Assembly (NCBI RefSeq): GCF_016127575.1 | Contig: NZ_CP066018.1 | Location: forward strand, 3,390,001 to 3,422,000 | Origin: Cupriavidus necator | GTDB lineage: Bacteria; Pseudomonadota; Gammaproteobacteria; Burkholderiales; Burkholderiaceae | DNA length: 32,000 nt | Direction of reading: 5' to 3' | Shown: in pieces, positions 7,512-27,644 of the stretch | Position numbering within the stretch: position 1 is the stretch's first letter | Layout of the letters: every line of letters begins with the position of its first letter | Notes under the pieces: generated by a model | What the model saw: only the letters and a program-made list of their open reading frames with translations | Database searches by the model: none | Told to the model about the DNA's origin: nothing | Translations under genes and position numbers: made by a program

Positions 7512-7542
7512 CGCGGGCACGGCAGGCAGGCTGCTGCAGCCA

Positions 7543-7847: not shown

Positions 7848-8206
7848 ACAAGCTCACAGCGCAGGAAACCGTCTCGCTGGCGGCGCAGCTTGACGCGGAC
7901 GAAGCGCGCATCCATGCCGCCGTTGGTTCCGCCGACACGCCGATGACACCATTGGCGCAGCGTGAGGCGCGGGACGAGGGCGACCTTGCCGACGAAGAAA
8001 TCCTGCAGCGGCAGGATGATGCGATGCTGGAACACTACCGCATGCAACTGGCCGACATCGCCGCCGCGCGGGCGCGGATGCAGCACGGCCAGTACGGCAC
8101 CTGCATCGATTGCCAGCAGCCGATCCCGTTCTCGCGCCTGCAGGCATATCCGACCGCGAAGCGCTGTACCGCATGCCAGCGCCGGCACGAGCAGCTTTAT
8201 GCGTGA
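7844..8206 (+). CDS. DksA/TraR-family C4 zinc-finger protein
   Basis: Track ORF 7394..8206 trimmed to ATG 7844 (RBS CAGGAGA). 120 aa. Coiled-coil N-terminal part, then CIDCQQPIPFSRLQAYPTAKRCTACQ (CxxC-N17-CxxC). Confidence 0.85.
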   Translation: MNKLTAQETVSLAAQLDADEARIHAAVGSADTPMTPLAQREARDEGDLADEEILQRQDDAMLEHYRMQLADIAAARARMQHGQYGTCIDCQQPIPFSRLQAYPTAKRCTACQRRHEQLYA

Positions 8207-11071: not shown

Positions 11072-11554
11072 CTATGCCGTCACGTCGGCCAGATCCTGCC
11101 CCAGGATGCCCGCCGCGCTACAGAGTACGCCCACGATAGCCAGCAGTGCGCGCCACGGGTGGCTCAGCAGCGCCTCCACTTGCTCGCTGCGGCTCTCGCC
11201 AGACAGGCACCAGATGCAGAAGTGCTCGCAGTTGTTGGTAAGAAGGCGGTAATCGTCCTCTCCAAGCCGCGCAGTCGCGCGCCGTACGATCTCCGCCTCG
11301 ACGTACCTCGCTTGCGTGGCCGGCTCGACGCGAAAGCCGTAGCCGCCGGCAAAGCCGGCGAGGGTGGTCTTTTCGACGGGGCCGCAACGCAGGAAACCTT
11401 TGAACCCGACATAGTGCACCACCTCGCCGTTGCCGACATAAATGCCGTGGTGGACATAACCACGGCGGTCCGTCTTCAGATGCGCGCCAAGAGGAATGTC
11501 CGCGGAGATTGCCGCAAGGCGCTGTGCGTGTCCGATGTGGTGATCGTCGCTCAT
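11072..11554 (-). CDS. LRAT / NlpC-P60-like (H-RAS-like suppressor family) protein with C-terminal TM helix
   Basis: 160 aa. RBS AAGGGGAA. Catalytic His context HHGIYVGNGEVVH, catalytic Cys in NCEHF, and hydrophobic tail ALLAIVGVLCSAAGIL. Confidence 0.75.
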   Translation of the reverse strand: MSDDHHIGHAQRLAAISADIPLGAHLKTDRRGYVHHGIYVGNGEVVHYVGFKGFLRCGPVEKTTLAGFAGGYGFRVEPATQARYVEAEIVRRATARLGEDDYRLLTNNCEHFCIWCLSGESRSEQVEALLSHPWRALLAIVGVLCSAAGILGQDLADVTA

Positions 11555-11875
11555 CGCTTTTCCCCTTGTTGCCTTTGTTGTGCTGGTCGCTCCTGCCCCG
11601 GTGGTCCCGGTTTTCCTGCCGATGAGGGCAACCGTGTGCCCCGTGTATGCCTGCAGTATCGTTGCCGGCCGGCGACGCCGAAATCAGCCGGTTCCGAAAA
11701 ACGTGTCGGCTTGCTGCCATGCAGCTTGTACGCGCATCGCGACGGCGCTTGTCCGCCGTTCGCACCGGGCTGTCAGCGGAACCTGACAAGGGCGCGGCGG
11801 TATAACCCGATATTTCCCAGCCATTGTGGAGAGGAGGGACATTCACCCTGCGTTGGCCGGTGACTTCGGCGATCG

Positions 11876-11889
11876 TTGACAGGCATCAA
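11876..11889. promoter_or_regulatory. Near-consensus FNR/FixK box TTGAC-AGGC-ATCAA
   Basis: 9/10 match to TTGAT-N4-ATCAA. It lies in the 448-bp divergent region, with centre ~120 bp upstream of the lipoprotein ATG 12003 and ~330 bp from the LRAT ATG. Confidence 0.55.
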
Positions 11890-12521: not shown

Positions 12522-14822
12522 TCACTCCGTGGGCGCATCTTCGCGCAGCGCATGGAACAGCTCGTCCTCCTGCGCGCAGTGCAGCCGCAATACGGCCTCG
12601 AGCCCGTAGAGCAGCCGCTGGTACTCCCTGACCCTGCCGGCGTCTGGCCCATCCGGCGGTGAGTCGTCCGCCATCCGCTGCAGTAGCCGGATCACCCGGA
12701 AGATCTCGCGGTGCATCGCGCTCATCGCCGCCAGCGGATCCTCGCCTCCGACCAGCAGCGCGAGTTGCGGATAGAGCTGCGCGTCATCGTGCTGTTCGTG
12801 GGGCAAAAGTGTTCCGCTGAGGGATGCGCACAAGCGGCGCAGTTCCGTGCCCGCGGCGTGGCCAGGCATGGCTGGCAACCTGTCCGCGAGGCTGCGGATC
12901 TGTTCCATCAGCGGCGCCAGCGCGGCGTGCTCCTGGTTCAGGCGCTCGGCGTCGGCCGTGGACAGGCGTTCCGCCGGCACCGACGGGTCGGCGCGCAGGG
13001 CGCGCAGCGCATTGGCAATGACCAGCACATCGATGACCTCCTGCAGCATGGCGCCGGCCAGTGGCGGCAGGTAGCCGAACGCGGCGACCGCCATCGCGAC
13101 GAACGACAGGCCCATGCCGGCCATGGCGCTTTGCACGGCCAGCCGGCGCGACCGGCGGGCGATGCGCACCGCGTCCACCAGCCGGTCAAGCCGGTCCACC
13201 AGCAGCACGACATCCGCGGCTTCCGACGATGCCGCGGCACCTCGTGCGCCCATGGCCACGCCGACGTCCGCGGCGGCCAGCGCCGGTGCATCGTTCACGC
13301 CGTCGCCCACCATCAGCACAGTGCCGTCGTGGCGCGCCGCCTCGATCGCGGCAAGCTTCTGCGAGGGGGTGAGGTTGGCATGGACCTCGGTCACGCCCAG
13401 CATCGCGCCGACGGTCTCGGCGACGTCGAGCCGGTCTCCCGTGAGCATGGCCAGGCGCCGTATGCCCGCCTTGCGCAGCAAGCGCAACGCGCGCGGGGTG
13501 TCCATGCGAATCAGGTCCACGAACTGCAGTGCCCCAACCAGCACGCCGTCGACGGTGACCAGCGAGACCGAGGCGCCTTCGAAGGCCGCGCGCTGCAACA
13601 TGGCCTGGCACCACGGTGGCCCGGCATCGCCGCCGCCGGCAAAGGCGGGCGATCCCACCGCCACCACGTGCTCGCCAACCCGCCCGGCAATGCCAGCACC
13701 GGCGGTCTCGGTCACGCCTGACGGCAGGTCCAGGGCCAGGCCTCGCTCGCGCGCCGCGGTCGTGATGGCTTCGGCGACAACATGCCCGGAGGCCTGGGAC
13801 AGCGAAGCGGCGACGCGCAGCACGTCGGGCGCCGGCCATCCGGGCGCGCTCTCGATGGCCGCCAGGCGGGCCCTTCCGCCCGTCAGCGTCCCGGTCTTGT
13901 CGAAGAAGAGGATGCTCGCCTGCGACAACCTTTCAAGCGCGCCGCCGCCCTTGACCAGCACGCCGCGCCCGGCGCAACGCGACACCCCGGACACAATCGC
14001 CACCGGAACGGCCAGGATCAACGGACAAGGGGTGGCGACCACCAGCACCGCCAGCGCCCGCGCGAGTTCACCACTGGCAAGCCAGGCAAGCCCGGCGACG
14101 AGCAGGGTGACAGGCACCAGCCACAGTGCATAACGGTCGGCCAACCGCGCCGCGGGCGGGCGCTCCGCGCGGGCGGTGCGCACCAGCCTGGCGATGCCGG
14201 CGAAGGTGCTGTCTGCCGCGGTGGTCGCTGCCACCATCTCGAACGGGGTGCCGGCGTTCAGCACACTGCTGCGCACGGTCTCGCCAGGGAGTCGCTGCCG
14301 TGGCAGCGACTCGCCAGTCAGGGCAGATTCGTCCAGCGTCGCCTGGCCCAGCAATGCGCCGTCCACGGGTACGACTTCGCCATGCCGGACCAACAGGCGA
14401 TCCCCCGGACTGACCACATCGAGGGAAACCGCGCGCCATTCTCCGTCCTCGAAGCGGTTGGCGGACTGCGGGGCGCGGCTGAGCAGGGCGGACATCTCCC
14501 GCTCGGAACGGGCCTGCGCATAGTTCTCAATGGCCCTGCCGCTCTCGATCATCAGGGCCAGTACGGCAGCCGCGAGGAATTCGCCAAGCGCCAGCGCCAG
14601 CCCGATCGCCAGCAGCGCCAGGACATCGACGCCCGCTTCCTTCCGGCGCAGCGACCGCACGATGGCGACGATCAGCGCGCCGGCGACGACCAGCGCGCCA
14701 ACCGCCCAAGCGAGCCTCGCGGCGAGCGCTTCGCCGAAGGCAAAAAGCAGCAAGCCAGCGCCCAGCGTGCCGGCCGCGACTGGCAGCAAGCCGAGGTCAA
14801 ACTTGCGAAACCCGATGTGCAT
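12522..14822 (-). CDS. P1B-5-type heavy-metal P-type ATPase with C-terminal hemerythrin (HHE) domain
   Basis: [17 protein letters not shown], and transmembrane TPCP (VVATPCPLILAVP) instead of CPC. There is no N-terminal metal-binding domain. The last ~150 aa carry His/Glu hemerythrin motifs (NQEHAAL, LPHEQHDD, MHREIF, LHCAQEDELFH). Start placed at ATG 14822 (CAGGGGA upstream); the track start 14933 is a GTG without an RBS. Confidence 0.85.
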   Translation of the reverse strand: MHIGFRKFDLGLLPVAAGTLGAGLLLFAFGEALAARLAWAVGALVVAGALIVAIVRSLRRKEAGVDVLALLAIGLALALGEFLAAAVLALMIESGRAIENYAQARSEREMSALLSRAPQSANRFEDGEWRAVSLDVVSPGDRLLVRHGEVVPVDGALLGQATLDESALTGESLPRQRLPGETVRSSVLNAGTPFEMVAATTAADSTFAGIARLVRTARAERPPAARLADRYALWLVPVTLLVAGLAWLASGELARALAVLVVATPCPLILAVPVAIVSGVSRCAGRGVLVKGGGALERLSQASILFFDKTGTLTGGRARLAAIESAPGWPAPDVLRVAASLSQASGHVVAEAITTAARERGLALDLPSGVTETAGAGIAGRVGEHVVAVGSPAFAGGGDAGPPWCQAMLQRAAFEGASVSLVTVDGVLVGALQFVDLIRMDTPRALRLLRKAGIRRLAMLTGDRLDVAETVGAMLGVTEVHANLTPSQKLAAIEAARHDGTVLMVGDGVNDAPALAAADVGVAMGARGAAASSEAADVVLLVDRLDRLVDAVRIARRSRRLAVQSAMAGMGLSFVAMAVAAFGYLPPLAGAMLQEVIDVLVIANALRALRADPSVPAERLSTADAERLNQEHAALAPLMEQIRSLADRLPAMPGHAAGTELRRLCASLSGTLLPHEQHDDAQLYPQLALLVGGEDPLAAMSAMHREIFRVIRLLQRMADDSPPDGPDAGRVREYQRLLYGLEAVLRLHCAQEDELFHALREDAPTE

Positions 14823-15246
14823 GGCGAACCCGATCCCCTGCGTAACTGGCGCCGGTTGCTGGGATACTCCCGCTGATGCCTTCAGGCGATCGCAGATCCT
14901 GCCGCGCTGGCGGCTGCGCAATCCCGGCTGCACGCCGAATCAGGCACTGTGTAATGGTGATGTTAGTCCAACAGGCACCGGGCCGATAATAGCCTCGGCC
15001 GCAGGCAGGGCGCGCCAGCCAGCCCTGGAGATAGTCGATGGCTGCAGGGGCCGCGGTTCGCGGCGCCACGGAGATGATTCGGCACGGCGCGGACCCGCAG
15101 TGGCTGTCGGCGGTACTGCCGTATTCGCTCACTCCTTGATGCACGCGGCGATTACGGCGCATTTTCGGTTCAAATTGCGCTTTGGCCGGTGCCGCCCTAT
15201 ATATTTGGGGGGCGAGAAGCACTCTCAGACAATCATCGTCCATTCC

Positions 15247-16971
15247 ATGAGCAACCCTTTGGCGCCCGCGGGCAAGGTGCAGCCTTCGTCCGAACGTTCT
15301 CACTCCCTTGCCATGGCGATTGGCAGTGTGACGGTCGTTCTCGTCCTCGCGGGGGGATGCTTCTTGATGGCTACCGTCGAATGGTATCGGCAGTTCCTGG
15401 CGCCGTTGGTGCTCTTGACGGGCGCAGGCATCGGGCTCGCCGTGGGACTTTACTGGAACCGGTTGAGGAAGCTTACAGGGAGTAGTGATATCCAACGCGT
15501 GGCGGATAGCGAAGCCCAGTTGGCGGGGATCATCCGATCTTCGATGGAAGCGATCATCACCGTGGACGGTGACCAGCGCGTCGTACTGTTCAATCCCATG
15601 GCAGAAACGCTATTCGCCTGGCCGGCCGAACTTGCAATCGGGCGCTCCCTGAGCGACTTCATTCCCCACCGCTTTCGGGCCGCCCATGCAGAGCATGTGC
15701 GCCGGTTTGGGATCACGGGCGTTTCGGACCGCGAGATGGGACTCCAACGGGCGCTGTGCGCCATGCGTCGGGACGGAAGCGAGTTCCCTATCGAAGCATC
15801 CATTTCACAGATCTCTGTCGGCGAGGCCAAGTTATACACTGTGATGCTGCGCGATATCACCGAACGCGTGCGTGCTGAGGAAGCCCTGCACCGAAGCCTT
15901 CAGCTTGTGAAGGAAAGCGAGGCGCGATTGGCGGGAATTATCCGCTCCTCCATGGAAGCGATCATCACCGTGGACAATGAACAACGCGTAGTGCTGTTCA
16001 ACCCAATGGCGGAGACGTTGTTCGCCTGGCCCGCCGAACTCGCGATTGGCCGCCCCCTCGGCGACTTCATTCCCGAACGCTACCGGGCCGCTCATGAGGA
16101 GCACGTGCGTCGGTTTGGGATCACGGGCGTATCGGATCGTCAGATGGGACGTCAACGGGCACTCTACGCTCTGCGTCGTGACGGCACTGAATTCCCTATC
16201 GAAGCATCCATCTCGCAAACGGCCCACGAAGGCACGAAGCTATATACCGTGATGCTGCGTGATATCACGGAGCGGGCACGCGCGGAGGCGGCCCTGCGCC
16301 GCTCACGGGAAGAACTGCAACAGCTTTCAGATGGGATACTCGCTGCCCGCGAGGAGGAGAGGCGCCGCATTGCACGCGAGCTGCACGATGACCTGGGCCA
16401 GCGCCTGAGCGCGCTTAAGATGGACATGGCTATGCTCGGCGCGGACGTCGATGAGGGCCGTGACACAGCAGGACTGCTAGACGAGATTGGTGCCATAAAC
16501 GGCGTCATCGACAATACTGTTGCCTCGGTCCGACGCATTGCCAGTGACCTACGGCCGGCCTTGCTGGACGAGTTGGGAATGATTCCTGCCATTGAGTGGT
16601 TGGCCGATGATTTTGCCAACCGGTACGGATTGGCGGTGAGCGTGGACGGTGCCGAGGCTGACGTCCCCGCGCAGACGGCAATCGCCATGTTCCGCATTGT
16701 CCAGGAGGCATTGAGCAATGTCGTCCGGCATGCCGACGCGACCACCGTGCATATTCAGCTCACCCAGTCAGAGGGCCAACTTGTGTTGCGGGTGCAAGAC
16801 AATGGGGTGGGCTGGGACAAGGTCTCCTCCGCAAGCGGGCCACGCAAATCGCTGGGACTCCTTGGCATCCGGGAGCGGGCACGCCTTCTGGGTGGCAGCT
16901 TCACCATCGACAGCACTCCCGGCAAGGGCTTTTGCCTAATCGTGCAAATTCCCCACGAAAGGGTGGCCTGA
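15247..16971 (+). CDS. Membrane-anchored sensor histidine kinase: 2 TM, tandem FixL-like PAS, HisKA_3, HATPase_c
   Basis: The 813-aa track ORF is trimmed to ATG 15247, because the upstream part is antisense to the ATPase gene. Two hydrophobic helices with a ~7-aa loop. H-box ELHDDLGQRLSALK is NarX/DevS-type HisKA_3. N/G boxes: EALSNVVRHA, DNGVGW, GLLGIRERA. No RBS is obvious, so the start is approximate. Confidence 0.85.
   Translation: MSNPLAPAGKVQPSSERSHSLAMAIGSVTVVLVLAGGCFLMATVEWYRQFLAPLVLLTGAGIGLAVGLYWNRLRKLTGSSDIQRVADSEAQLAGIIRSSMEAIITVDGDQRVVLFNPMAETLFAWPAELAIGRSLSDFIPHRFRAAHAEHVRRFGITGVSDREMGLQRALCAMRRDGSEFPIEASISQISVGEAKLYTVMLRDITERVRAEEALHRSLQLVKESEARLAGIIRSSMEAIITVDNEQRVVLFNPMAETLFAWPAELAIGRPLGDFIPERYRAAHEEHVRRFGITGVSDRQMGRQRALYALRRDGTEFPIEASISQTAHEGTKLYTVMLRDITERARAEAALRRSREELQQLSDGILAAREEERRRIARELHDDLGQRLSALKMDMAMLGADVDEGRDTAGLLDEIGAINGVIDNTVASVRRIASDLRPALLDELGMIPAIEWLADDFANRYGLAVSVDGAEADVPAQTAIAMFRIVQEALSNVVRHADATTVHIQLTQSEGQLVLRVQDNGVGWDKVSSASGPRKSLGLLGIRERARLLGGSFTIDSTPGKGFCLIVQIPHERVA
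15511..16308 (+). repeat. Tandem in-frame duplication (period 408 bp) encoding the two PAS modules
   Basis: Copy 1 starts ~15511 and copy 2 ~15919. By my hand alignment 104 of 125 aligned residues are identical (83%). Identical 20-24 nt runs include atggaagcgatcatcaccgtggac, cggtttgggatcacgggcgt and ttccctatcgaagcatccat. Confidence 0.85.
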
Positions 16972-17036
16972 TGCGACATGCCTCATGATTGGGGATGGCA
17001 TCGCAGTTGTCCGGAATCAAGCCCCCATGTGCCGGG

Positions 17037-17105
17037 GTAATTCTGGCGATTGTAATTGCGAACGCCGCGACCGGCTTCATTCAGGACGGCAAGGCGGAAA
17101 AAAGC
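17037..17105 (+). pseudogene. Short remnant of a P2-type (CtpF/Ca-Mg-like) P-type ATPase, TM2 region
   Basis: VILAIVIANAATGFIQDGKAEKS matches the very conserved P2-ATPase block ..V..NA.vGFiQE.kAE.al. The similarity is lost on both sides. Only ~23 codons, so low confidence. Confidence 0.35.
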
Positions 17106-17281
17106 CACGGACCGTTTCGGCACCGGCGACGCTACGCCGAATGCTTTGCAGACACTCACTCCATTCTGCTGCTGCAGCGGAACTGCCGTCGCAAGAGCGA
17201 CGGCCGGACGGCAAGGGGCTGGCAGGTTTGCGGTCTGACGGGATTAGTCCGCACGAGGGCCAAACCTTACGGCTAGACCCA

Positions 17282-17842
17282 TCATCCGCCTGGCGCCATC
17301 TTTCCACCCATGCCCGGACCCATCCCCGGCCCCATGCCCGGACCCATGCCCGGACCCATGCCCATGCCCGGGCCCATGCCTTGGTCGTTGGCCATCGTCT
17401 GCATCATTTCCTGCATGAACGCCATGTGACTACCCGCCATGTCTTGGCACATCTGCATTTGATTTGATGGGGCGTTTCCCTTGGCGACTCTCTTGCCAGG
17501 AGCCATACGAGCAGGGCCGCCCATTTTCATCATGTCCTTTTGCATGATGGCCATTGCATCTTGCATGACCTGATGGCGTTCAGCCAAGAGGGCCTGACGC
17601 TCCTCCGGCGTTTTGGCACGCGAAAGCCGCTCTCTGATGGCACGCAGGTGGGCAACCTGGGCGTCCAGCTTTGCATCGCTGGAAACTCCGGGAGTTACGA
17701 CCGGAGCCTTATCTTGCCGCTTTTCAGGATGGTGCTGCTCATGCTCAATGCCGGTAGCCGGCGACGCCGGGAAAGCTGCTGGCGCCCACGCTAGCACGGC
17801 GGCCGCAGTGATAAGGGTAGAGAGGCGATGGTTGGTGGACAT
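17282..17842 (-). CDS. Secreted Met-rich protein with C-terminal (GPGM)n repeat; possible periplasmic Cu(I)/metal-binding or CpxP/Spy/ZraP-like protein
   Basis: 186 aa. RBS AGGAGGA. Signal peptide LITAAAVLAWAPAAFPA|SP. I counted 23 Met in the C-terminal ~105 residues. Tail: GMGPGMGMGPGMGPGMGPGMGPGMGGKM. The function is inferred from composition only. Confidence 0.7.
   Translation of the reverse strand: MSTNHRLSTLITAAAVLAWAPAAFPASPATGIEHEQHHPEKRQDKAPVVTPGVSSDAKLDAQVAHLRAIRERLSRAKTPEERQALLAERHQVMQDAMAIMQKDMMKMGGPARMAPGKRVAKGNAPSNQMQMCQDMAGSHMAFMQEMMQTMANDQGMGPGMGMGPGMGPGMGPGMGPGMGGKMAPGG
17309..17380 (-). repeat. In-frame 12-nt coding microsatellite (CATGCCCGGNCC on the + strand = GPGM), five units plus two 6-nt half-units
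   Basis: Units at 17309-20, 17321-32, 17333-44, 17345-56 and 17363-74. Half-units catgcc at 17357-62 and 17375-80. Confidence 0.85.
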
Positions 17843-17907
17843 GGGAGATCCTCCTATGAAAACATGATGGTTCCTAGTCCAAGGTATGCGGCGGTCAGGG
17901 ATTTGAG

Positions 17908-17921
17908 TTGATTGGGATCAA
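17908..17921. promoter_or_regulatory. Perfect FNR/FixK consensus box TTGAT-TGGG-ATCAA
   Basis: 10/10 match. Centre is 72.5 bp upstream of the Met-rich protein ATG (17842). This fits a class II (-41.5) activator site with a ~30-nt leader. Confidence 0.75.
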
Positions 17922-17964
17922 CGAAGCGATGGGTGTACCGGGTGTTCAGTCCCATCGATGTGCT

Positions 17965-17998
17965 GGTCTGCGCAGGAGCAATCTGCGCAGACCATTTT
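17965..17998 (+). terminator. Intrinsic-terminator-like hairpin: 11-bp perfect stem GGTCTGCGCAG / CTGCGCAGACC, 7-nt loop, then ATTTTG
   Basis: Stem 17965-75 and 17983-93, followed by ATTTTGC on the + strand only. There is no + strand gene upstream, so its role is unclear. Confidence 0.35.
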
Positions 17999-18214: not shown

Positions 18215-18658
18215 TTACGCCCGTTGCATGCTTGATTTGGCGCGCTCCGCGACGTCGAACACGAGCATGCCAGCCACCATTGCTGCCACAAAGCCAATGG
18301 CCTTCGGATAGCCAGCGCCCAGGGCAACCAGCGCGGGACCAGGGCAGAAGCCGGCCAGACCCCAGCCGACGCCGAAGGCGGCGCTGCCCAGTACCAGCCG
18401 CAGCGTTACGGCCGTGCTGGCCGGCAGTTGCACAGGCAGCCCCAGGAAGGAGTGTTTGCGGTGTTTGGCGATGAGGAAGGCGAGCGAGCCAATGGCAATG
18501 GCACCGGCCATCACAAAAGCGAGGGACGGGTCCCAGGTTCCTGCAAGGTCAAGAAAGCCCAGCACCTTGGCCGGGTTGGCCATGCCGGAGACCATCAGGC
18601 CAATGCCAAATAGCAGGCCTGCGACGAGTGCAGTCATGGCGGTCATATCAGCCTCCAA
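18215..18658 (-). CDS. YeeE/YedE-family (DUF395) half-size sulfur-compound transporter subunit
   Basis: 147 aa, four hydrophobic helices, GFCPGPALVALG motif. Overlaps the upstream paralogue by 11 nt. Confidence 0.8.
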   Translation of the reverse strand: MEADMTAMTALVAGLLFGIGLMVSGMANPAKVLGFLDLAGTWDPSLAFVMAGAIAIGSLAFLIAKHRKHSFLGLPVQLPASTAVTLRLVLGSAAFGVGWGLAGFCPGPALVALGAGYPKAIGFVAAMVAGMLVFDVAERAKSSMQRA

Positions 18659-19082
18659 TCAGGTGCCGTTGCACGAAGACAGTCAGGAATCCCGCCACCA
18701 TGAAGGTGAGGGTGGCGACCAGCGAGCGGATGGAGCCGCGCGAGATGCCGCACACGCCATGGCCGCTGGTGCAGCCGCTGGCGTAGCGGGTGCCAAGGCC
18801 GACCAGGAAGCCGGCGGCCAGGATTTCGCCCCAGCTTGCCTGGATATCCGCAATGGCGGGCTTGCCGAGCAGGCTCGCAATCACAGGAGCGCCAACCAGG
18901 CCAGCGAGGAAGGTCAGGCGCCAGGCCATGTCCTTTCGAGGCAGGCTAAGCAGGCCGCCGAAGATGCCGCTGATGCCGGCAATGCGGCCGTTGAACAGCA
19001 GCAGCACAGCGGCCGCCGCACCGATGATGAGCCCGCCGACCAGTGACAGGCCGGGCGTGAAGTTAGCGAGGTCAATCAGCAT
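18648..19082 (-). CDS. YeeE/YedE-family (DUF395) half-size sulfur-compound transporter subunit
   Basis: 144 aa. GTRYASGCTSGHGVCGISRGS motif typical of the family. Overlaps the bigR-like gene by 7 nt. Confidence 0.8.
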   Translation of the reverse strand: MLIDLANFTPGLSLVGGLIIGAAAAVLLLFNGRIAGISGIFGGLLSLPRKDMAWRLTFLAGLVGAPVIASLLGKPAIADIQASWGEILAAGFLVGLGTRYASGCTSGHGVCGISRGSIRSLVATLTFMVAGFLTVFVQRHLIGG

Positions 19083-19414
19083 GTCGCCTCCTGATCGGGG
19101 TTGGCACAGAACTGTTCATAAAGGACCGCCATGACGGCAAGCGCCTGGGGGCTCGCCACCGAATAGAAGATGTTCTTGCCGTCACGGCGCGTGGCCACCA
19201 GGCTGTTCTCGCGCAGCACACCGAGCTGTTGAGACAGCGTCGGCTGCCGGATGCCGAGCTGTTCCTCCAGCTCACCGACAGACAGCTCGCCTTGGGACAG
19301 GCGGCACATCAGCAGCAGGCGGTCCGGATTGGCAAGCACCTTGAGCAGGGTACAGGCCTGCGCCGCAGCAGCTTGCATGCTGGCGAGGTCGATGGCGGGG
19401 TGGGGCTGGTCCAT
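19076..19414 (-). CDS. bigR: ArsR-family winged-helix repressor, BigR-like redox/persulfide switch
   Basis: 112 aa. wHTH region SVGELEEQLGIRQPTLSQQLGVLR. Cys37 (LLMCRL) and Cys103 (EQFCAN) are 66 residues apart, the same spacing as the Cys42/Cys108 pair I recall for Xylella BigR. The genomic context is YeeE x2 plus a divergent blh. Confidence 0.8.
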   Translation of the reverse strand: MDQPHPAIDLASMQAAAAQACTLLKVLANPDRLLLMCRLSQGELSVGELEEQLGIRQPTLSQQLGVLRENSLVATRRDGKNIFYSVASPQALAVMAVLYEQFCANPDQEATC

Positions 19415-19437
19415 AGGTCGTTTACATTTTGCTTGTT

Positions 19438-19478
19438 AATATTATATTGAAAAATAGAATGTATGTGAATAGAATGTA
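19438..19478. promoter_or_regulatory. AT-rich divergent promoter/operator candidates: palindrome AATAT-T-ATATT and direct repeat AATAGAATGTA x2
   Basis: Palindrome at 19438-19448. 11-nt direct repeats at 19453-63 and 19468-78 (15-bp period). These lie in the only 84 bp between bigR and blh, a segment that is strikingly AT-rich for this genome. Confidence 0.4.
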
Positions 19479-19498
19479 CTGCATCCAAGGAGGCGAGC

Positions 19499-20359
19499 AT
19501 GCACCCGACTATCCAGCCGTTCTTCGACCCTGCGACCTGGACTGTGACGTACGTGGTCTTTCAGGAGGGGCGCCCCGAGTGCGCCATCATCGACTCGGTG
19601 CTGGACTACGACCCCAAGGCGGGTCGGACATCGACGGCAAGTGCTGATAAGGTTGTTGCGTTTGTGCGCGCGCATGGACTGAGAGTCGAGTGGATTCTCG
19701 AGACGCACGCGCATGCTGACCACCTGTCTGCCGCGCCGTACCTGAAGCGACACCTGGGTGGCCAGACAGCAATAGGCCAGAACATCCGCAACGTACAGGG
19801 GGTCTTCAAGACGCTCTTTAACCTGGAGCCTGAGTTTCGGCTCGACGGGTCGCAGTTCGACCACCTGTTTGACGACGGAGCGACGTTTGCCATCGGCGGC
19901 CTGACCGGCAGGGCGATTCATGTGCCAGGGCATACACCCGCCGACATGGCTTACCAGATTGGGGACGCGGTCTTTGTCGGCGATACGCTGTTCATGCCGG
20001 ACGTCGGCACGGCTCGCTGCGATTTCCCGGGCGGCGACGCACACGAGTTGTATCGCTCCATCCGCAAGCTGCTGGACCTGCCGAGCAATACACGGCTCTT
20101 TATGTGTCACGACTATCCGCCCGAGGGGCGCGGGCCTGCATGGGAAACGACGGTGCGCGCTCAGCGCGAAGGCAATATCCACGTGCATGACGGCGTGAGC
20201 GAGGAACAGTTCGTGGCCATGCGCCGGGCGCGCGATGCGACGCTGGCGATGCCGACGCTGCTTCTGCCGTCGGTGCAAGTCAATATACGAGCCGGGGAGT
20301 TGCCGCCGCCCGATGCGAATGGCGTTCGCTATCTAAAAATCCCTCTGGACGTCATCTGA
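19499..20359 (+). CDS. blh: MBL-fold hydrolase, Blh/ETHE1-like persulfide dioxygenase candidate
   Basis: 286 aa. RBS AAGGAGG. Metal motif THAHADH and a later HVPGHTPAD. Divergent from bigR, as in BigR-type sulfide detoxification loci. Confidence 0.8.
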   Translation: MHPTIQPFFDPATWTVTYVVFQEGRPECAIIDSVLDYDPKAGRTSTASADKVVAFVRAHGLRVEWILETHAHADHLSAAPYLKRHLGGQTAIGQNIRNVQGVFKTLFNLEPEFRLDGSQFDHLFDDGATFAIGGLTGRAIHVPGHTPADMAYQIGDAVFVGDTLFMPDVGTARCDFPGGDAHELYRSIRKLLDLPSNTRLFMCHDYPPEGRGPAWETTVRAQREGNIHVHDGVSEEQFVAMRRARDATLAMPTLLLPSVQVNIRAGELPPPDANGVRYLKIPLDVI

Positions 20360-20755: not shown

Positions 20756-21559
20756 TCACTTCGAAATCGCCCCGCTCAGAAGATGTTCCTCTGCATAAGG
20801 AAACACAACTTCCGGATTAGGGCGAATCAGCTCAGCGTCCTTGTGCGCATAGTGAAGGCGGGTCAGTAGATCCTTGATGACGCTGAGGCGTGCGACATGC
20901 TTGTCGTCGGCGCGCACGACGTTCCATGGCACGATGTCGCTGGTTCGAGCAAACATCTCGTTCCGTGCCTTACTGTATTTCTTCCAAAGCGATACCGCTT
21001 GTTCGTCAATGGGGCTGACTTTCCACTGTTTTAGCGGGTCCCGGCGGCGCTCTTCGATGCGCTTCTTCTGTTCGGCCTTGCTGATGTCAAGGTAGTACTT
21101 GATAAGACGAATTCCGGAACGCACGAGCATCCGTTCGAACTCTGGGACACTTGCCATGAACTCCTCATGCTCGTCCTTGGTGCAGAAGCCCATCACATGT
21201 TCCACACCGGCCCGGTTGTACCAACTGCGATTGAAAAGGGTGAACTCGCCGGCCGCAGGCAGCTCGGCCGCATAGCGGCGGAAGTACCAGGAGCCTCGGT
21301 CACGGTCGGATGGCTTCCCCAGTGCGACGACGCGCGTTTCACGCGGACTGAGGTGTTCGACAATGCGCTTGATGGTCCCATCCTTCCCAGACGCATCCCT
21401 TCCCTCAAAAATCACCAGAATCCGGTCGCTGCAGGAAATGAAGTGCTTCTGTAGTTTGACCAGCTCGATTTGAAGCAGGTGGAGATTCTCCTCATAGCTG
21501 TCATGGGAGAGGGCGCTTGCCTCGGATGGAGCCGTCTTGCTACTTGTCTTCATTTTCAT
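20756..21559 (-). CDS. ppk2: Polyphosphate kinase 2 (single-domain PPK2)
   Basis: 267 aa. RBS GGGAGGTG. Walker-A-like FEGRDASGKDGTIK, followed by FNRSWYNRAGVEHVMGF and the lid region. Confidence 0.9.
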   Translation of the reverse strand: MKMKTSSKTAPSEASALSHDSYEENLHLLQIELVKLQKHFISCSDRILVIFEGRDASGKDGTIKRIVEHLSPRETRVVALGKPSDRDRGSWYFRRYAAELPAAGEFTLFNRSWYNRAGVEHVMGFCTKDEHEEFMASVPEFERMLVRSGIRLIKYYLDISKAEQKKRIEERRRDPLKQWKVSPIDEQAVSLWKKYSKARNEMFARTSDIVPWNVVRADDKHVARLSVIKDLLTRLHYAHKDAELIRPNPEVVFPYAEEHLLSGAISK

Positions 21560-21990
21560 GGTTCACCTCCCTTGAGTCGGGCGCATCGGGTGGGAAAGGG
21601 TGGGGCTTTCCAGGTGAAAGCGGGGTAACTTTTTCGTTGAGCAACAGCTCCAGCGAAGGGCGGTCTACGACCTCCTGTTCGAGCAGTAGCTTTGCCAGCG
21701 CGTCTGGCTTGTGCCGGTTTGCCAGCAATGTTTGCTTCACCCGCTGACTGGCGTCGCCCAGAATCGTCCGCACTTCTGCATCAATGATTTGCGCAGTACT
21801 CTCGCTGTACTCTTTGCGTTGCCGAGGCATTGGCAGCTTCGAGGTCCTGGACCAGATTGGGGTCGTTGACCCGAAGCGTGGAGAAGGGGTGGTCTCCCTT
21901 TCCCTGGCGCAACATCTCTTCGACCTGTGGCTTGGGGAGCAGAGTCTCAATGCCAGTGGTGACACGAGCTCGTAAAGAGCTGTGGCGCAA
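21540..21990 (-). pseudogene. ftsH: C-terminal remnant of an FtsH-family protease (frameshifted, N-terminally truncated)
   Basis: One frame reads RKEYSESTAQIIDAEVRTILGDASQRVKQTLLANRHKPDALAKLLLEQEVVDRPSLELLL, the FtsH C-terminal helical region (compare ..SDETARIIDQEV...L...ETID). An upstream piece, VTTG...GDHPFSTL...PNLVQDL, is in another frame. The AAA and zinc-protease cores are absent. Confidence 0.6.
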
Positions 21991-22020
21991 GGACTTGGAG
22001 TCATATCGCCATTCTTGGTA

Positions 22021-22287
22021 TCAGGTCTCTCCTTGAAGGCTGTTGTGTAACCATGCAAAGAATGCCCCGGCAGCGAAGAACCACACCGCAAACACAAAGG
22101 CTGGATAGATGATGGACCACCACGATACTGATTCGCCGGTCTGAAGGCGCCGGAAATCGAGCCCGTGAAAGAGCGCGTTCATGAAATTCATGAAGGGCTC
22201 AGGAAGAACCATCCAGACGAGCGTGCATAGAACGTAGAACAGCACGACCGTGGCGGATAGCGTCAAACCAGTCTTGAAGGGTTTCAT
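22021..22287 (-). CDS. Small multi-pass membrane protein (resembles what RefSeq labels DUF5676; recalled from memory)
   Basis: Track ORF trimmed to ATG 22287 (GGAGG 6 nt upstream). 88 aa with hydrophobic segments LTLSATVVLFYVLCTLVWMVL and IIYPAFVFAVWFFAAGAFFAW. Confidence 0.6.
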   Translation of the reverse strand: MKPFKTGLTLSATVVLFYVLCTLVWMVLPEPFMNFMNALFHGLDFRRLQTGESVSWWSIIYPAFVFAVWFFAAGAFFAWLHNSLQGET

Positions 22288-22323
22288 GGCAGCCTCCGGG
22301 TGCAAGGAAGATGACGGTTGAAT

Positions 22324-22992
22324 TCAATGAGGACGCGTCCGCGGAACATCTCGGGCTGAGATATGCGGAATGAACGCTGGTGTCTTTTGGCGATATTCCT
22401 CATATGCTTGCCCGAACTCGGCCAGTGCGTCCTGCTCCTCCGACTTGGCCAGCCGAACATACATCCAGACCAGGATGGGGAACATCACCAGAGTGACTAT
22501 CGTCGGCCACTGCAGCAGGAAGCCGAACATAATCAGGACGAACGCGACATACTGGGGGTGCCTCATGCGCGCATAGAGACCAGTGGTCGCCAGGCGGTGC
22601 TGCTGCTGGGCCAGGTACAGAATGCGCCAGGCGGAAGACAGCATGATGAAGCCGCCAAAAATCAAGATGTCGCTGGCGATGTGAAATGGCCCCAGGTGCG
22701 GGTTGCCCCTCCAGCCGAAAATCATCTCCGGAAGATGACCGGCATCATGCGAGAGGAAGTCGATTCCCGGGAATTTCGCCGAAAGCCACGGTAGCAGGAG
22801 ATAGATACTCAGGGGGATGCCATACATCTCTGTAAAGAGCGCCACAATGAACGCGGAGAACGCGCCAAACGAGCGCCAGTCGCGCTGGGTCTTCGGCTTG
22901 GTGAAGCTGAAGGCGAAGATGATGAAGACAGCTGAGTTGATAATGACCAGCGACCAGAGACCGTAGCTGGATTGTGTTTCGGGTTGCATCAT
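22324..22992 (-). CDS. Integral-membrane ICMT/PEMT-family SAM-dependent methyltransferase
   Basis: 222 aa, multi-pass. Family motif TGLYARMRHPQYVAF, followed by EEQDALAEFGQAYEEYRQKTPAFIP. The start overlaps the DUF2933 stop (ATGATG/TGA at 22987-22992). Confidence 0.8.
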   Translation of the reverse strand: MMQPETQSSYGLWSLVIINSAVFIIFAFSFTKPKTQRDWRSFGAFSAFIVALFTEMYGIPLSIYLLLPWLSAKFPGIDFLSHDAGHLPEMIFGWRGNPHLGPFHIASDILIFGGFIMLSSAWRILYLAQQQHRLATTGLYARMRHPQYVAFVLIMFGFLLQWPTIVTLVMFPILVWMYVRLAKSEEQDALAEFGQAYEEYRQKTPAFIPHISARDVPRTRPH

Positions 22993-23249
22993 CGCTCTCC
23001 TTTGGCGTTCGTGTCCTTGGTGGCGTCATCCGGTCCGTGACCGTGTCGATGTCCACCGTGCATGAAGATGTGCATTAAGGGGCAGGCGGCCAGCAGAAGA
23101 AATGGCAGGAACTGAATGACGTGTGCCCGGTGTTCAGTCCATAGGAAGTAGGCAATCACCAGCAGAAAGCCAATCATGACCAGCTTGGACCTGGCCACGG
23201 TGCGCAGTGCGTCGCCAGGCCGCTCATGACCGTTGTGGTCGTGGTTCAT
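22989..23249 (-). CDS. DUF2933-like His-rich small membrane protein
   Basis: 86 aa. N-terminal MNHDHNGHE, two TM helices, then ACPLMHIFMHGGHRHGHG. Confidence 0.7.
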   Translation of the reverse strand: MNHDHNGHERPGDALRTVARSKLVMIGFLLVIAYFLWTEHRAHVIQFLPFLLLAACPLMHIFMHGGHRHGHGPDDATKDTNAKGER

Positions 23250-23439
23250 GTTTTCCTCCTATAAAGCGAACGCCGTACCGCCTGGCAGCAGCCATGGTGC
23301 CGATGACGTAGGTGTATGTATCTCGCTTGGTCTTGCTGAAAAACTGTTCGCCGTTCCGCCAAGCAGGAGCCAAGTGAGACTCTGTGATAACCAGTTCATA
23401 GACCCTCTCTTCAACCTTTGTCTTGGCGTTCACGCTCAA
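23224..23439 (-). CDS. Questionable 71-aa ORF (TTG start, no RBS), unknown function
   Basis: It fills the only gap in the array and overlaps both neighbours (29 and 26 nt). Its composition is protein-like ([42 protein letters not shown]), unlike shadow ORFs. No credible start signal was found. Confidence 0.25.
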   Translation of the reverse strand: MSVNAKTKVEERVYELVITESHLAPAWRNGEQFFSKTKRDTYTYVIGTMAAARRYGVRFIGGKHEPRPQRS

Positions 23440-23626
23440 CTGCGTTTCGTATATCGCGCTCGCACTGTCGCGAAAGGCGAAGACTCAACCACACCACAAC
23501 GACCGGACAGGACAGCAGGAGTAGGCCAACCAGTATGGTGAACGGTGTCAGCCCAAACCGGTAGACGATAGCTGCCGCGAGTAGCATTGCAAAGGCAGCG
23601 CAAATCCATGCCACCGGGTGTTTCAT
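23411..23626 (-). CDS. Small two-TM membrane protein translationally coupled to the Cu ATPase
   Basis: 71 aa. Its ATG overlaps the ATPase stop (ATGA, 23623-23626). Two hydrophobic helices, then a charged tail [19 protein letters not shown]. Confidence 0.55.
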
Positions 23627-26106
23627 CTCGCCTCCAGGCTGGCAATTCTGGCGCCAAGTCGTACACGCTTCAGCAATGCGGAGTTGGCTACCACACTCAA
23701 TGAGGACAGTGCCATTGCTGCTGCGGCAAAGATGGGGTTCAGGAGTCCAAGTGCGGCGATAGGGATGCCGATGGTGTTGTAGATGAACGCCCAGAAGAGG
23801 TTCTGTTTGATTTTGCGCATCGTCGCGCGGGACAGCTCAATGGCGGCAACCACGTCACGCACGTCATCGCGAATGAGGATGATGCTCCCAGTTTCCTTCG
23901 CGACATCCGAGCCTGAGCCGATGGCAATGCCGATGTCCGCTGCGGCAAGCGCCGGTGCGTCATTGACGCCGTCTCCCACCATGGCCACGACCTCCCCTTG
24001 CTTCTGTAATGCGTGAATGGTCTCGACCTTGTCTTCCGGCATCACCTCGGCAATGACATGCTCAATGCCAACCTGCCGGCCGATTGCCTCGGCGGTGCGG
24101 CGGTTGTCACCGCTCAGTAGCACAACCTTGATGGCGCGCGCCTTCAATGCCGCGATTGCCTCGCTCGCTTCCGGTTTCACAGTGTCAGCCACGGCCACTA
24201 CGCCGAGCAATTGTGTGCCGGCGCCGACCAGCATGGCTGTCTTGCCATCGGCCTCGAGCTTCCCGAGTACAGATTCGGCCGATTCGATTGGGATGCCTTG
24301 GCGTGCAAAGAGACGCCGGTTGCCCAGCCAGACTTGCTGACCGTCGACGAGGCCCTGAATGCCCATGCCAGACAATGCGCTGATGCTGGCTGCCTTGGGA
24401 ATGGTGAGCGCGCGATACTGTGCGGCGCGCACGATGGCTTCGCCCAAAGGGTGCTCGGACCCGGCTTCCACAGCGGCAGCAAGAGTCAGCAGGTCAGATT
24501 TCTCTCGCCCAGAAAGGGGGATGACATCGGTCAAGGTCGGCTCTCCGCGCGTAATCGTCCCGGTCTTGTCAAAGACAACCGCGGTGAGCTTCTCGGCCCG
24601 CTCCAGCACTTCACCGCCGCGTATCAGGATGCCGTTGTCCGCGCCCTTGCCGACGCCGACCATCAGCGCTGCTGGCGTGGCGACGCCTAGCGCGCAGGGG
24701 CAGGAGATAATCAGAACAGCCACGAATGCGAGCAGTCCCTGCGGAAAATGACCGGCGACGGTCCATCCCACTAATGCCAGCATCGCGACCGAAACAACCG
24801 CAGGTACGAAGTAGCCGGTGACCTGGTCCGCCAGTCTCTGAATCTGCGCGGTGCTGGCCTGGGCGTCCTCGACCATCCTGATAATCTGAGCGAGAGCGGT
24901 GTCCGCTCCGATTTTTGTGGCCTGGAAGGTGAAGGCGCCACTGCGGTTTAGCGTGCCGCCAATGACAGCGGCACCAGGCTTCTTTTCCACGGGCATCGAC
25001 TCGCCGGTCAGCATCGATTCATCGACACTGGATTGGCCATCGATAACCTTGCCATCAGTGGGAATCTTCTCGCCGGGGCGTACAACGACCGCTTCGCCCA
25101 CCATGATGCTTTCAGCCGGGATTTCCACCTCCGTCCCGTCGCGAAGCACGTGAGCGACGGCGGGGCGCAGGTCGAGCAGGCGTCGAACAGCGGCGGAGGA
25201 TTTCTTCTTGATGATTTCCTCCATGTATTTCCCCAGCAGCACGAAGGCGATAATGACCGCCGACACCTCAAAGTAGACGTCTCGCTCTTCGACCTTGACG
25301 GGCAGCCAGGACGGAAAGAACAGCACTACTACGCTGTAGAAGTAGGCGACGGACGTCCCCAGGGCGATGAGGAAGTCCATATTGATATTGCGCGTCCGGA
25401 TGGCGTTCCATGCGCCCTTGTAGAAGCTCCAGCCGCCAATGAACTGGACCGGCGTGACGAGAAGGAATAGCCACATCCCCCACGTGAACCAAGGCAGGGC
25501 GGGAATCGGGGCCCAAGTCACGAGCGTCGCGCCGGCTGCCAGTGCCAGGAAGGCGCCAGCCCGCAGCACCGCCAGCGCGAGCACGCCCGTGAGCGCAATG
25601 GTCACGCGCGTCTTCATGGCTTTCAACTCGCTCTCTGGCGACTCGAAGGTCCGAAGGCAGCTCTCGCTGCAGAAGTAGTACTTGCGGTTGCCACGCTCGG
25701 CGGAGAGGGCCGTAGCCTTGTCCACCATCATTCCGCAAATAGGGTCCTTGGCGAGTTGCTTGGCGGCGTGGGAAGCAAGCGCGGGCGTCGCCGCAGGGAT
25801 AGGAGCGACGCCGGGTGGGCTAGGACTGCGGGAGGGCCCAGCCGAGCTACGCCTATCAACGGGGTGAAGAACATATTTCGCCGGGTTGGCTAGGAAAACC
25901 TGCTCACAGTGTGGAGAGCAGAACCAGTATCGCTTCTGGTCGAGCTCCGTGCTGGTAGCGGCCTCCCGTGGGGAGATCTCCATGCCACAGACCGGGTCAC
26001 GCACGAGCTGCTGCGAGGCGGCCGGGCCTGCGGCGGCCGTTGGAGCTGCCTGGGCTTCGGTGAGGCCGTAACTCCCCCCATTAGGGGTGGTGGACTTGGT
26101 CGGCAT
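23623..26106 (-). CDS. Cu(I)/Ag(I)-type P1B-1 P-type ATPase with two N-terminal YHS/TRASH domains
   Basis: 827 aa. RBS AAGGAGAGG. Two copies of DP(V/I)CGM...(Y/W)FCS..C. Transmembrane CPC (IISCPCALG), YN (FIYNTIGIP) and [12 protein letters not shown] signature. DKTGTIT and [10 protein letters not shown] present. No HMA (CxxC) domain. Confidence 0.9.
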
Positions 26107-26188: not shown

Positions 26189-26202
26189 TTGATTTCAATC
26201 AA
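26189..26202. promoter_or_regulatory. Perfect FNR/FixK consensus box TTGAT-TTCA-ATCAA
   Basis: 10/10 match. Centre is 89.5 bp upstream of the ATPase ATG (26106), within the 240-bp gap after the SAM synthetase gene. Confidence 0.75.
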
Positions 26203-27630: not shown

Positions 27631-27644
27631 TTGACGCGAATCAA
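27631..27644. promoter_or_regulatory. Near-consensus FNR/FixK box TTGAC-GCGA-ATCAA
   Basis: 9/10 match. Centre is 106.5 bp upstream of the SAM synthetase ATG (27531) and 46.5 bp upstream of the ATG (27684) of the decayed formate/nitrite transporter gene. A weaker box, TTGCC-TAGC-ATCAA, follows at 27660-27673. Confidence 0.6.

Follow-up and report, generated by a model that had tools for sequence, protein, structure and literature searches.

A methionine-rich, putatively exported protein of Cupriavidus necator with a strain-variable GPGM tail belongs to a family encoded beside copper genes

Small Met-rich periplasmic proteins are familiar components of bacterial copper loci, and several kinds have been described. 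SilE and PcoE are disordered in the apo form and carry repeated HxxM/MxxH sites for Ag(I), CusF, CopK and CopC are built as β-barrels or β-sandwiches, and Csp1 and Csp3 are four-helix bundles lined with Cys. The Met-rich inserts of the copper-resistance multicopper oxidases CueO, PcoA and CopA and the CopB-type repeats present disordered Met/Gly(/His) tracts of variable length that are thought to capture Cu(I). At low oxygen Cu(I) is stable and multicopper oxidases are left without their co-substrate, as in the cue/cus systems of Escherichia coli, where Cus is important anaerobically. In Alteromonas and other bacteria a mobile copper module composed of DUF2933, ICMT, cupredoxin and CopA has been described (PMC8478169), and in Burkholderia cenocepacia the lxa locus, activated at low oxygen and furnished with an Anr-like motif, is needed for anoxic survival (PMC3721108). 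The present analysis concerns a gene at positions 17282-17842 of a 32,000-nt stretch of Cupriavidus necator DNA (contig NZ_CP066018.1, positions 3,390,001 to 3,422,000; the whole stretch is called the window). Its product is a small Met-rich protein of this general kind, and we give about an even chance to the reading that it is a periplasmic Cu(I)-binding buffer or acceptor made at low oxygen. The gene and the parts of its product are as follows.

17282-17842, minus strand: coding sequence of the Met-rich protein, 186 amino acids, ATG start, TGA stop at 17282-17284 (list of open reading frames and translation)
17850-17855, minus strand: Shine-Dalgarno sequence AGGAGG, 7 nt 5′ of the ATG, read directly and kept in relatives
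17765-17842, minus strand: signal-peptide-like N-terminus, approximately residues 1-26 (MSTNHRLSTLITAAAVLAWAPAAFPA), with an Arg and a hydrophobic 12-mer; predicted local distance difference test (pLDDT) below 50 in the model
17726-17746, minus strand: His cluster EHEQHHP, residues 33-39, near the mature N-terminus (conservation in 220 sequences)
17522-17680, minus strand: helices 1 and 2 (residues 55-75 and 79-107) of the AlphaFold2 model, including the TPEERQAL turn and the Met stripe M93/M97/M100/M104/M107
17570-17614: segment KTPEERQALLAERHQ, residues 77-91, with the TPEERQAL turn
17378-17470, minus strand: helix 3 of the model (residues 125-155) with M140, M143, M146, M147 and M150 and the clade-specific C132 and H139

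The protein contains 27 Ala, 24 Met (13%), 23 Gly, 16 Pro, 7 His and a single Cys, and all but one of the Met residues fall within residues 81-186 (106 residues), in agreement with the 23 Met in about 105 residues counted in an earlier reading of the letters made without database searches (below, the sequence-only reading). At the N-terminus an Arg stands just before the hydrophobic 12-mer (residues 7-18, mean Kyte-Doolittle hydropathy 2.09), and hydropathy along the whole protein gave no second hydrophobic segment. This layout is common to 198 of 220 aligned relatives and fits the signal peptide seen in the sequence-only reading, putatively of the Sec type. Some relatives have RR, but twin-arginine export was discounted as a trait of the whole family, since many relatives are without the pair and HR stands in its place in the window protein. 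The antisense open reading frame at 16985-17467 on the plus strand is a mere reverse reading of the repeat that encodes the tail.

Database comparisons placed the protein in a wide family. There were 75 word-indexed homologues at E ≤ 0.01, 48 of them at E < 1e-15, mostly called "hypothetical protein" and coming mostly from Cupriavidus and Ralstonia, the more distant ones from Variovorax and metagenomes. A profile search of 1.84 billion cluster representatives returned 891 clusters (50% identity) at E ≤ 1e-10 and 1976 at E ≤ 1e-3. Within the window the 17282-17842 gene is the single member. The hmmscan comparison, which the sequence-only reading had named as the way to choose between Metal_resist/LTXXQ and the copper-binding families, gave no Pfam-A family at E ≤ 10 for the window protein, and NCBIfam gave no meaningful model for it. 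Fifty-five relatives scanned singly against Pfam and NCBIfam had no family in common. The hits that these scans of the window protein and its relatives gave were at chance level, to a glutathione-transferase model at E = 0.087 and, in six members, to LpqS_Mycobact with a best E of 0.0019. In the PDB the family sequence profile met nothing beyond brief chance matches over the TPEERQAL segment, one with a MarR regulator and one with mitoribosomal mL96. By these comparisons the protein is a member of a large family that appears to have neither a name nor a curated model. In the literature searched (Cupriavidus Met-rich periplasmic proteins, DUF2933/ICMT copper islands, the plasmid pALWEK1.1) the surrounding genes are described, and no named or characterized member was found. 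The wider family and the FNR-type promoter presented below had both been overlooked by the sequence-only reading. Some genomes hold two family genes in one locus, at 598-1029 and 3080-3631 in L016 and at 7389-7913 and 7983-8480 in L078, a Sulfuricella metagenome-assembled genome in which the two copies stand directly in tandem.

Conservation was read from the alignment of 220 family members in the numbering of the window protein. The common layout consists of the signal peptide, an EHxxHHP motif, helix 1, an A-x-T-P-E-E-R-x-A-L turn, helix 2, a Gly/Met-rich loop and helix 3. H34, H37, H38 and P39 are conserved in 73-80% of the sequences. Conservation across the family is highest in the TPEE-R-Q-A-L segment (A76, T78, P79, E81, R82 and L85 at 89-97%). 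In helix 2, M93, M97 and M100 are conserved at 94-97%, and in helix 3 position 143 is Met in 219 of the 220 sequences, with M146, M147 and M150 at 92-97%. The Met content of family members has a median of 17.7% and a maximum of 29%. At positions 59, 63, 66, 69, 73, 86, 99, 136, 142, 149 and 151 most members have Met and the Cupriavidus clade has Leu, Ile, Val or Phe. Because of these replacements, part of the Met load is best regarded as exchangeable hydrophobic core and a defined subset as held to Met, which suggests that the held residues are under a constraint beyond hydrophobicity. On a helical wheel the held Met residues lie within an arc of 80-120 degrees of each helix, and the Met stripe of helix 2 falls within 80 degrees.

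The window protein and a distant Variovorax member, modeled separately with AlphaFold2, gave the same three helices, with pLDDT around 90 in helices 1 and 2 (91-95 across residues 61-100 of the window protein) and a low-confidence tail. Neither model matched anything in the PDB at E ≤ 0.001 in Foldseek searches, in which only generic helical hairpins were ranked.

The all-helical prediction and the KTPEERQALLAERHQ segment, which the sequence-only reading had taken as CpxP/Spy-like, bring in the possibility that the protein is a periplasmic chaperone or stress-sensor modulator of the Spy/CpxP/ZraP type (LTXXQ, PF07813; Metal_resist, PF13801), having a flexible, Met-lined client surface and a ZraP-like tail, with metal as a cofactor at most. 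Proteins of this type, whose fold is a cradle-shaped dimer of helical hairpins, are likewise helical and periplasmic, the T-P-E-E-R-Q-A-L turn resembles LTXXQ (a T-P-E-x-x-Q-like turn), the relative P0006 bears the UniRef label "LTXXQ motif family protein", and the window contains stress genes (a cpn60 paralogue, a DksA/TraR gene and an FtsH fragment, listed below). Several Spy/CpxP-family proteins also carry (GMGPGMMG)n tracts, N-terminal in those related to the metagenomic protein P0060, and GRGMMGY ends. P0060 itself fuses helices 1-2 of the family to a Metal_resist/LTXXQ domain, which suggests a shared compartment or process at most. Homology, however, was undetectable: between the family alignment and a Spy/CpxP alignment built from 22 Spy/CpxP-family proteins collected with the P0060 domain (13 proteins in the comparison), hhalign gave a probability of 3.9% over two aligned columns. 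Sub-threshold LTXXQ matches were seen in only 2 of the 55 scanned relatives (E = 0.021), and Spy, CpxP and ZraP chains were missing from the PDB profile matches and from the 50 top-ranked Foldseek matches of either monomer model. TPEE is, besides, a common helix N-cap, and the adjacent histidine kinase, with its PAS modules in the cytoplasm and a close pair of membrane helices, has no periplasmic domain to offer a CpxP-like partner. Homology to CpxP/Spy was thus not supported, while the resemblance of the Gly/Met-rich tail to Spy-type proteins is real but compositional; such tracts recur in unrelated periplasmic helical proteins. We regard a chaperone or modulator role as unlikely.

The copper connection comes from the gene neighborhoods. 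Seventy-seven family loci from different species were surveyed; neighboring genes were clustered, representatives were named by Pfam and the classes were recounted by BLAST, with the following result.

P-type ATPase: 52 of 77 loci, in 40 of them downstream on the same strand within 3 kb
ICMT-family methyltransferase: 38 of 77 loci, in 34 of them downstream on the same strand
Cupredoxin: 28 of 77 loci
Multicopper oxidase: 20 of 77 loci
CusA-type resistance-nodulation-division (RND) pump: 18 of 77 loci
DUF411/CopG: 13 of 77 loci
Cytochrome c: 13 of 77 loci

At least one of multicopper oxidase, CusA, DUF411/CopG or cupredoxin was present in 47 of the loci, and a P-type ATPase and/or a copper gene in 64, a linkage of the kind looked for in periplasmic Cu(I)/Ag(I) binders. 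All four linked ATPases that were inspected (the YHS-domain ATPase of the window and those of L010, L087 and L091) have the CPC, YN(x)4P and M(x)2SS motifs, which in Argüello's scheme we take to mark the P1B-1 type with Cu(I)/Ag(I) as substrate. On the Acinetobacter lwoffii plasmid pALWEK1.1 the family gene ("hypothetical protein") is followed by DUF2933, ICMT and heavy-metal P-type ATPase genes with gaps of 12-27 nt, and this unit sits between copCD and copRS-copA in a region that is reported to be a functional copper-resistance determinant of the plasmid (PMC5067307). At least 56 Acinetobacter plasmids carry the family gene. The copper link of the family is supported by its gene neighborhood. 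The order varies in other lineages. In Ralstonia pseudosolanacearum it is cytochrome b561, family gene, P1B-1 ATPase, ICMT unit, Usp and cytochrome c, with HSP20 and a metallo-β-lactamase (MBL) RNase upstream; in Cupriavidus taiwanensis (L084) the DUF2933-ICMT-DUF5676 genes diverge from the family gene, which stands directly before a hemerythrin ATPase; and further Cupriavidus loci also contain genes for PPK2, full-length FtsH, cytochrome c and cupredoxin.

In the window the usual partner module of the family lies on the same strand (22021-26106, minus), about 4 kb upstream of the Met-rich gene, and an S-adenosylmethionine (AdoMet) synthetase gene precedes it.

26347-27531, minus strand: archaeal-type AdoMet synthetase (PF01941, E = 1.7e-129)
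23623-26106, minus strand: Cu(I)-type P1B-1 ATPase with two YHS domains (Pfam; CPC, YN(x)4P and M(x)2SS motifs)
22989-23249, minus strand: DUF2933 protein (Pfam)
22324-22992, minus strand: ICMT-family methyltransferase (Pfam)
22021-22305, minus strand: DUF5676 protein (Pfam)

Set against the described copper proteins, the family resembles CusF, CopK, PcoE/SilE and CopC/PcoC in being small, Met-rich, putatively exported and encoded beside Cu(I) efflux genes, and the window protein also bears His. It differs from CusF, CopK and CopC in its predicted three long helices and from SilE/PcoE in its confidently predicted helical core, and the minisatellite-encoded tail is an extra with respect to all of them. 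CusF (PF11604), CopC/PcoC, CopK and CzcE gave neither a Pfam match nor a PDB profile match at E ≤ 10, the model being all-helical, and no PcoE/SilE similarity was found by Pfam or NCBIfam in the window protein and the 55 relatives. Accordingly, of the suggestion in the sequence-only reading that the protein belongs with the Met-rich Cu(I)/Ag(I) binders of the CopC, PcoE and CusF classes, the copper link holds through the neighborhoods of the 77 loci, and membership in CopC, PcoE/SilE or CusF does not, for lack of any Pfam, PDB-profile or fold match. With the disordered tracts of CueO, PcoA, CopA and CopB the (GPGM)n tail has in common that it is repetitive, Met/Gly-rich and of strain-variable length; unlike them, it is a C-terminal appendage on a small non-enzymatic helical protein and is encoded by a nearly pure 12-nt DNA repeat, a purity that implies recent slippage. 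The likeness to Csp1 and Csp3 is in concept only, a helical face lined with soft sulfur ligands: the would-be ligands here are Met thioethers instead of Cys, three helices are predicted per chain, there is no fold match, and the Csp1 NCBIfam model matched one family member only, at chance level (E = 0.017).

The second line of evidence concerns the promoter. Alignment of the upstream regions of relatives revealed an invariant palindrome in front of the Met-rich gene, and a pattern search of the window found further sites of the same type.

17908-17921, both strands: perfect FNR/Anr/FixK-type box TTGAT-CCCA-ATCAA, center 72.5 nt 5′ of the ATG (pattern search)
17881-17886, minus strand: putative -10 hexamer TACCTT (TAnnnT), first base 28.5 nt downstream of the box center (direct reading and arithmetic)
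26189-26202: perfect FNR box before the YHS ATPase gene
27631-27644: FNR box before the AdoMet synthetase gene
11876-11889: FNR box next to the 242-residue open reading frame listed below

From this spacing we infer a class II FNR promoter with the box center at -41.5, the position sought for a TTGAT-N4-ATCAA site of the FNR/Anr regulon, relative to a transcription start predicted near 17873. A generic sigma-70 scan upstream of the gene gave no -35/-10 promoter, as expected for an activator-dependent one. With up to one mismatch the window contains four sites, all intergenic, against 0.31 expected, and none of 100 shuffles reached four, which suggests a low-oxygen regulon island. The box of the Met-rich gene is kept at -78 to -89 in L001 (another C. 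necator genome), C. taiwanensis L084, Ralstonia L087 (one mismatch) and L089, a chromosomal Cupriavidus paralogue; it is absent before the C. pinatubonensis family gene. The YHS ATPase gene and the 242-residue open reading frame of C. taiwanensis have boxes in front of them as well. A box between -300 and +150 was seen in 15 of 78 distant family genes, compared with 41 of 719 other genes of the same loci (odds ratio 3.9, Fisher p = 1e-4), so that low-oxygen control appears to be recurrent, not universal, in the family.

The neighbors of the Cupriavidus and Ralstonia family genes recall the lxa locus (PMC3721108) in kind: Usp, alpha-crystallin/HSP20, an FtsH-like ATP-dependent Zn protease, a cation ATPase, cytochromes c and b561, an ABC/MacAB-like transporter, a PfkB-type kinase and a metal-dependent MBL RNase, with an Anr/FNR-like inverted repeat before many of the genes. 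This likeness consists of gene kinds and box, and no family member has been placed within lxa, the locus tags BCAM0316/0317 going unmentioned in the literature searched. In Burkholderia seminalis (L055) the family gene forms a separate unit with ICMT and ATPase genes and the surroundings are not lxa-like.

The position of the family gene at the head of the DUF2933-ICMT-ATPase unit can be explained in another way, namely that the product is a non-buffering part of this membrane module, either a substrate or partner of the ICMT enzyme or an assembly or regulatory factor of the ATPase, its Met residues being incidental or structural. The co-directional, tight linkage to DUF2933 and ICMT genes (34 of 77 loci, with the short gaps in Acinetobacter) favors this view, as does the AdoMet synthetase gene of the window, which stands with its FNR-like box directly upstream of the ATPase-ICMT genes; that arrangement in itself hints at a dedicated low-oxygen supply of S-adenosylmethionine for the methyltransferase unit. 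ICMT-family enzymes act, however, at the cytoplasmic or membrane face, whereas the protein bears a putative export signal; the family gene occurs without ICMT in 39 of the 77 loci, and also without an adjacent ATPase; and the C-termini are clade-specific, with no conserved C-terminal Cys or CaaX-like motif. We hold a part of this kind in the module to be improbable.

The same surroundings, together with the Met content (13% here and up to 29% in the family), could also be those of a sacrificial oxidant sink or a Met/sulfur reserve for dormancy or stress, in which the tail would serve only to supply more Met. With its genes for Usp, PPK2, HSP20 and chaperonin the island has a stress- or dormancy-like appearance, the sulfur module ArsR-YeeE-DUF6691-MBL is adjacent, and one paralogue locus has, at a distance of 4 kb, an Oxidored_molyb gene paired with a cytochrome b gene, a combination of domains that resembles MsrPQ. 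An FNR-type promoter, on the other hand, predicts expression when oxidants are scarcest, the dominant association across phyla is with copper export and oxidation genes and not with Msr genes, and it is specific Met positions that are invariant, not bulk composition. A sink or reserve function seems to us very unlikely.

The tail of the protein is its most variable part.

17309-17380, minus strand: minisatellite with a 12-nt unit, (GGCATGGGTCCG)n as read on the coding strand, which specifies the (GPGM)n tail (direct reading, Tandem Repeats Finder, allele comparison)
17282-17302, minus strand: C-terminal KMAPGG and stop, a frameshifted ending (alignment with L001/L002)

Read along the plus strand, 17309-17380 consists of CATGCCCGGACC, CATCCCCGGCCC, CATGCCCGGACC, CATGCCCGGACC, CATGCC, CATGCCCGGGCC and CATGCC, that is, five CATGCCCGGNCC-type 12-mers and two CATGCC half-units, exactly as the sequence-only reading had it; Tandem Repeats Finder reported 17306-17363 with period 12, 4.8 copies, 91% matches and a score of 102. 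The C-terminus is NDQ-GMGPGMGMGPGMGPGMGPGMGPGMGG-KMAPGG. The Gly/Met/Pro tract described earlier is therefore present, but the protein does not end in it, since six more residues follow. The nearest public relatives are Cupriavidus megaplasmids (C. necator C39 p1, C. necator N-1 pBB1 and Cupriavidus sp. KK10 p1) with about 94-95% DNA identity. In alignments of the gene with those of N-1, C39, KK10 and L001 all length differences fall in the tract and all are in frame (24 or 42 nt): the window allele is 42 nt shorter than those of N-1 and C39, the KK10 allele is 24 nt longer than that of N-1, and the L001 allele is 42 nt shorter than that of the window. Among alleles at least 85% identical outside the tract the number of GPGM units is 1 (P0080, P0085), 2 (P0001 and others), 5.5 (window), 9 (N-1, C39) and 11 (KK10), and every change of tract length is a multiple of 6 or 12 nt. 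Copy number thus differs among otherwise near-identical alleles, as in a variable-number tandem repeat, and the slipped-strand variation between strains that had been predicted from the repeat alone gains support from these orthologues. The repeats of N-1 and KK10 are almost pure GGCATGGGTCCG, which points to recent slippage and not to old divergence.

Compared with L001/L002, a 1-nt and a 2-nt deletion on either side of GATGATGGGT have changed the clade-typical ...APGKMMGK end into ...APGG. The KMAPGG ending is common to the window allele, C39, N-1, KK10 and P0079. A sequencing error was rejected as its source, as four independent genomes carry the same ending, and the altered terminus is thus a real allele. 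In the family as a whole C-termini vary from clade to clade: the (GPGM)n tail is confined to the Cupriavidus/Ralstonia branch, while distant members end in ...MMQMMMDRMPxxPAxK and have a Gly/Met-rich tract in the loop between helices 2 and 3 instead.

The protein is read as a periplasmic Cu(I) buffer or acceptor because it is putatively exported, offers soft ligands and has partner genes whose products export Cu(I). In the proposed mechanism it would be exported by Sec to the periplasm, with about 160 residues left after cleavage, and would have a disordered (GPGM)n tail after three amphipathic helices. Cu(I), and probably Ag(I), would be held by the thioethers of the Met face of helices 2 and 3 and of the Met-rich tail, and the EHEQHHP cluster could offer ligands for Cu(II). 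The protein would then act as a buffer or acceptor for the Cu(I) expelled to the periplasm by the P1B-1 ATPases, whose genes are its near-obligate partners. In Cupriavidus and Ralstonia its own class II FNR/Anr-type promoter would direct synthesis when oxygen is scarce, a role that would parallel that of the Cus system, and replication slippage would alter the number of Met sites in the tail, from about 6 to 13, always keeping the frame.

Several observations weigh against this proposal. In the window the gene is not in an operon with the Cu(I) ATPase gene, the ArsR-YeeE-DUF6691 genes and the MBL and PPK2 genes intervening, and the nearest ATPase downstream of it is of the P1B-5 type (hemerythrin domain, TPCP motif), a class of uncertain substrate, which under the current classification is presumably not copper. 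Several helix-1 Met positions are Leu, Val or Ile in the Cupriavidus clade, so part of the stripe behaves as ordinary hydrophobic core. The monomer models are only moderately confident (mean pLDDT 66-69; predicted template modeling score 0.37-0.48). Only about 19% of the distant family genes have an FNR box, which makes low-oxygen control a feature of the lineage and not of the family, and the loss of the conserved C-terminal MMGK in the window allele could reflect a tail under less constraint. The literature searched yielded no experimental work on a family member and no expression data for this gene or its orthologues.

A bolder extension, which we think rather unlikely, is that the family constitutes an unrecognized, widespread group of proteins that store or buffer periplasmic copper by means of Met, matching with thioethers what the Csp proteins do with Cys, and that it is switched by an FNR-type regulator in Cupriavidus and Ralstonia. 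The Met-lined helices, probably bundled, would receive Cu(I) from the P1B-1 ATPase and hold several ions of it, the protein would serve as the oxygen-independent arm of copper defense in hypoxia, and the minisatellite would tune its capacity between strains.

The remaining features of the window are the following.

21540-22097, minus strand: remnant of an FtsH-like protease, 185 amino acids, with only the end of the M41 peptidase domain
20756-21559, minus strand: PPK2
19499-20359, plus strand: MBL-fold protein, persulfide-dioxygenase-like, divergent
18215-19414, minus strand: ArsR-YeeE-DUF6691 group, an ArsR/BigR-like regulator and two YeeE/YedE-type half-transporters (one DUF6691)
17964-17994, minus strand: hairpin with a 12-bp stem (GGUCUGCGCAGA/…CUGCGCAGACC) and no T tract; RNA fold -28.7 kcal/mol, z = -2.6
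14530-16971, plus strand: open reading frame of a histidine kinase, HisKA_3-type, with duplicated PAS modules
12522-14933, minus strand: P1B-5-type ATPase with a C-terminal hemerythrin domain and a TPCP motif, without YN or MxxSS motifs
11118-11846, minus strand: open reading frame of 242 amino acids without a Pfam match
11072-11554: LRAT-family protein
9445-11016: APH/AAA_33 kinase-like protein
7394-8206: DksA/TraR zinc-finger protein
4291-6006: cpn60/GroEL paralogue
733-1479: SDR protein

The hairpin lies between the DUF6691 gene and the FNR box, is kept in all close relatives, and may serve the operon upstream as a transcript end or as a barrier. The sulfur-handling block at 18215-20359 recurs on other Burkholderiales plasmids, and at 8610-9456 of L001 two extra open reading frames (152 and 123 amino acids, no Pfam match), absent from the window, stand between the DUF6691 and family genes. 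The 185-residue FtsH-like fragment is probably a deletion remnant; the relatives L085 and L089 have a 646-residue FtsH-like gene beside PPK2. The SDR, cpn60, DksA/TraR, APH/AAA_33, LRAT and PPK2 genes look like a stress or dormancy set. Downstream of the Met-rich gene, synteny with C39 p1, N-1 pBB1, KK10 p1 and L001 ends about 150 nt past the stop codon (about 17133), where these have an M24 peptidase and a MacAB-like transporter and the window has the PAS histidine kinase. A 408-nt tandem duplication in the kinase gene (15520-16301, 1.9 copies, 79% matches) corresponds to its two PAS modules, and the true start of the kinase is probably near 15216, because the long open reading frame overlaps the ATPase gene.

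Neither the curated libraries nor the literature searched contain this family, its helical architecture with the Met stripe or its leading position in the DUF2933-ICMT-ATPase unit, and they are equally silent on the FNR-type control of one branch and on the strain-variable coding minisatellite. A specialist in metal homeostasis would find little to be surprised at here, and rather a well-defined lead and a clear gap in annotation: in Burkholderiales, Acinetobacter and Pseudomonas the gene turns up time and again, as "hypothetical protein", in copper-resistance islands of plasmids and chromids before the unit of DUF2933, ICMT and CopA-type ATPase, and a family definition would better annotate at least about 900 protein clusters. 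The series of alleles with 1 to 11 GPGM units is a natural experiment on the metal capacity of Met-rich tails and a usable marker for strain typing. The FNR-type promoter would tie copper handling to hypoxia in Cupriavidus and Ralstonia, and if the protein is a Cu(I) acceptor or buffer, it would fill a gap in periplasmic copper handling where CusF or the oxygen-dependent oxidases are unavailable.

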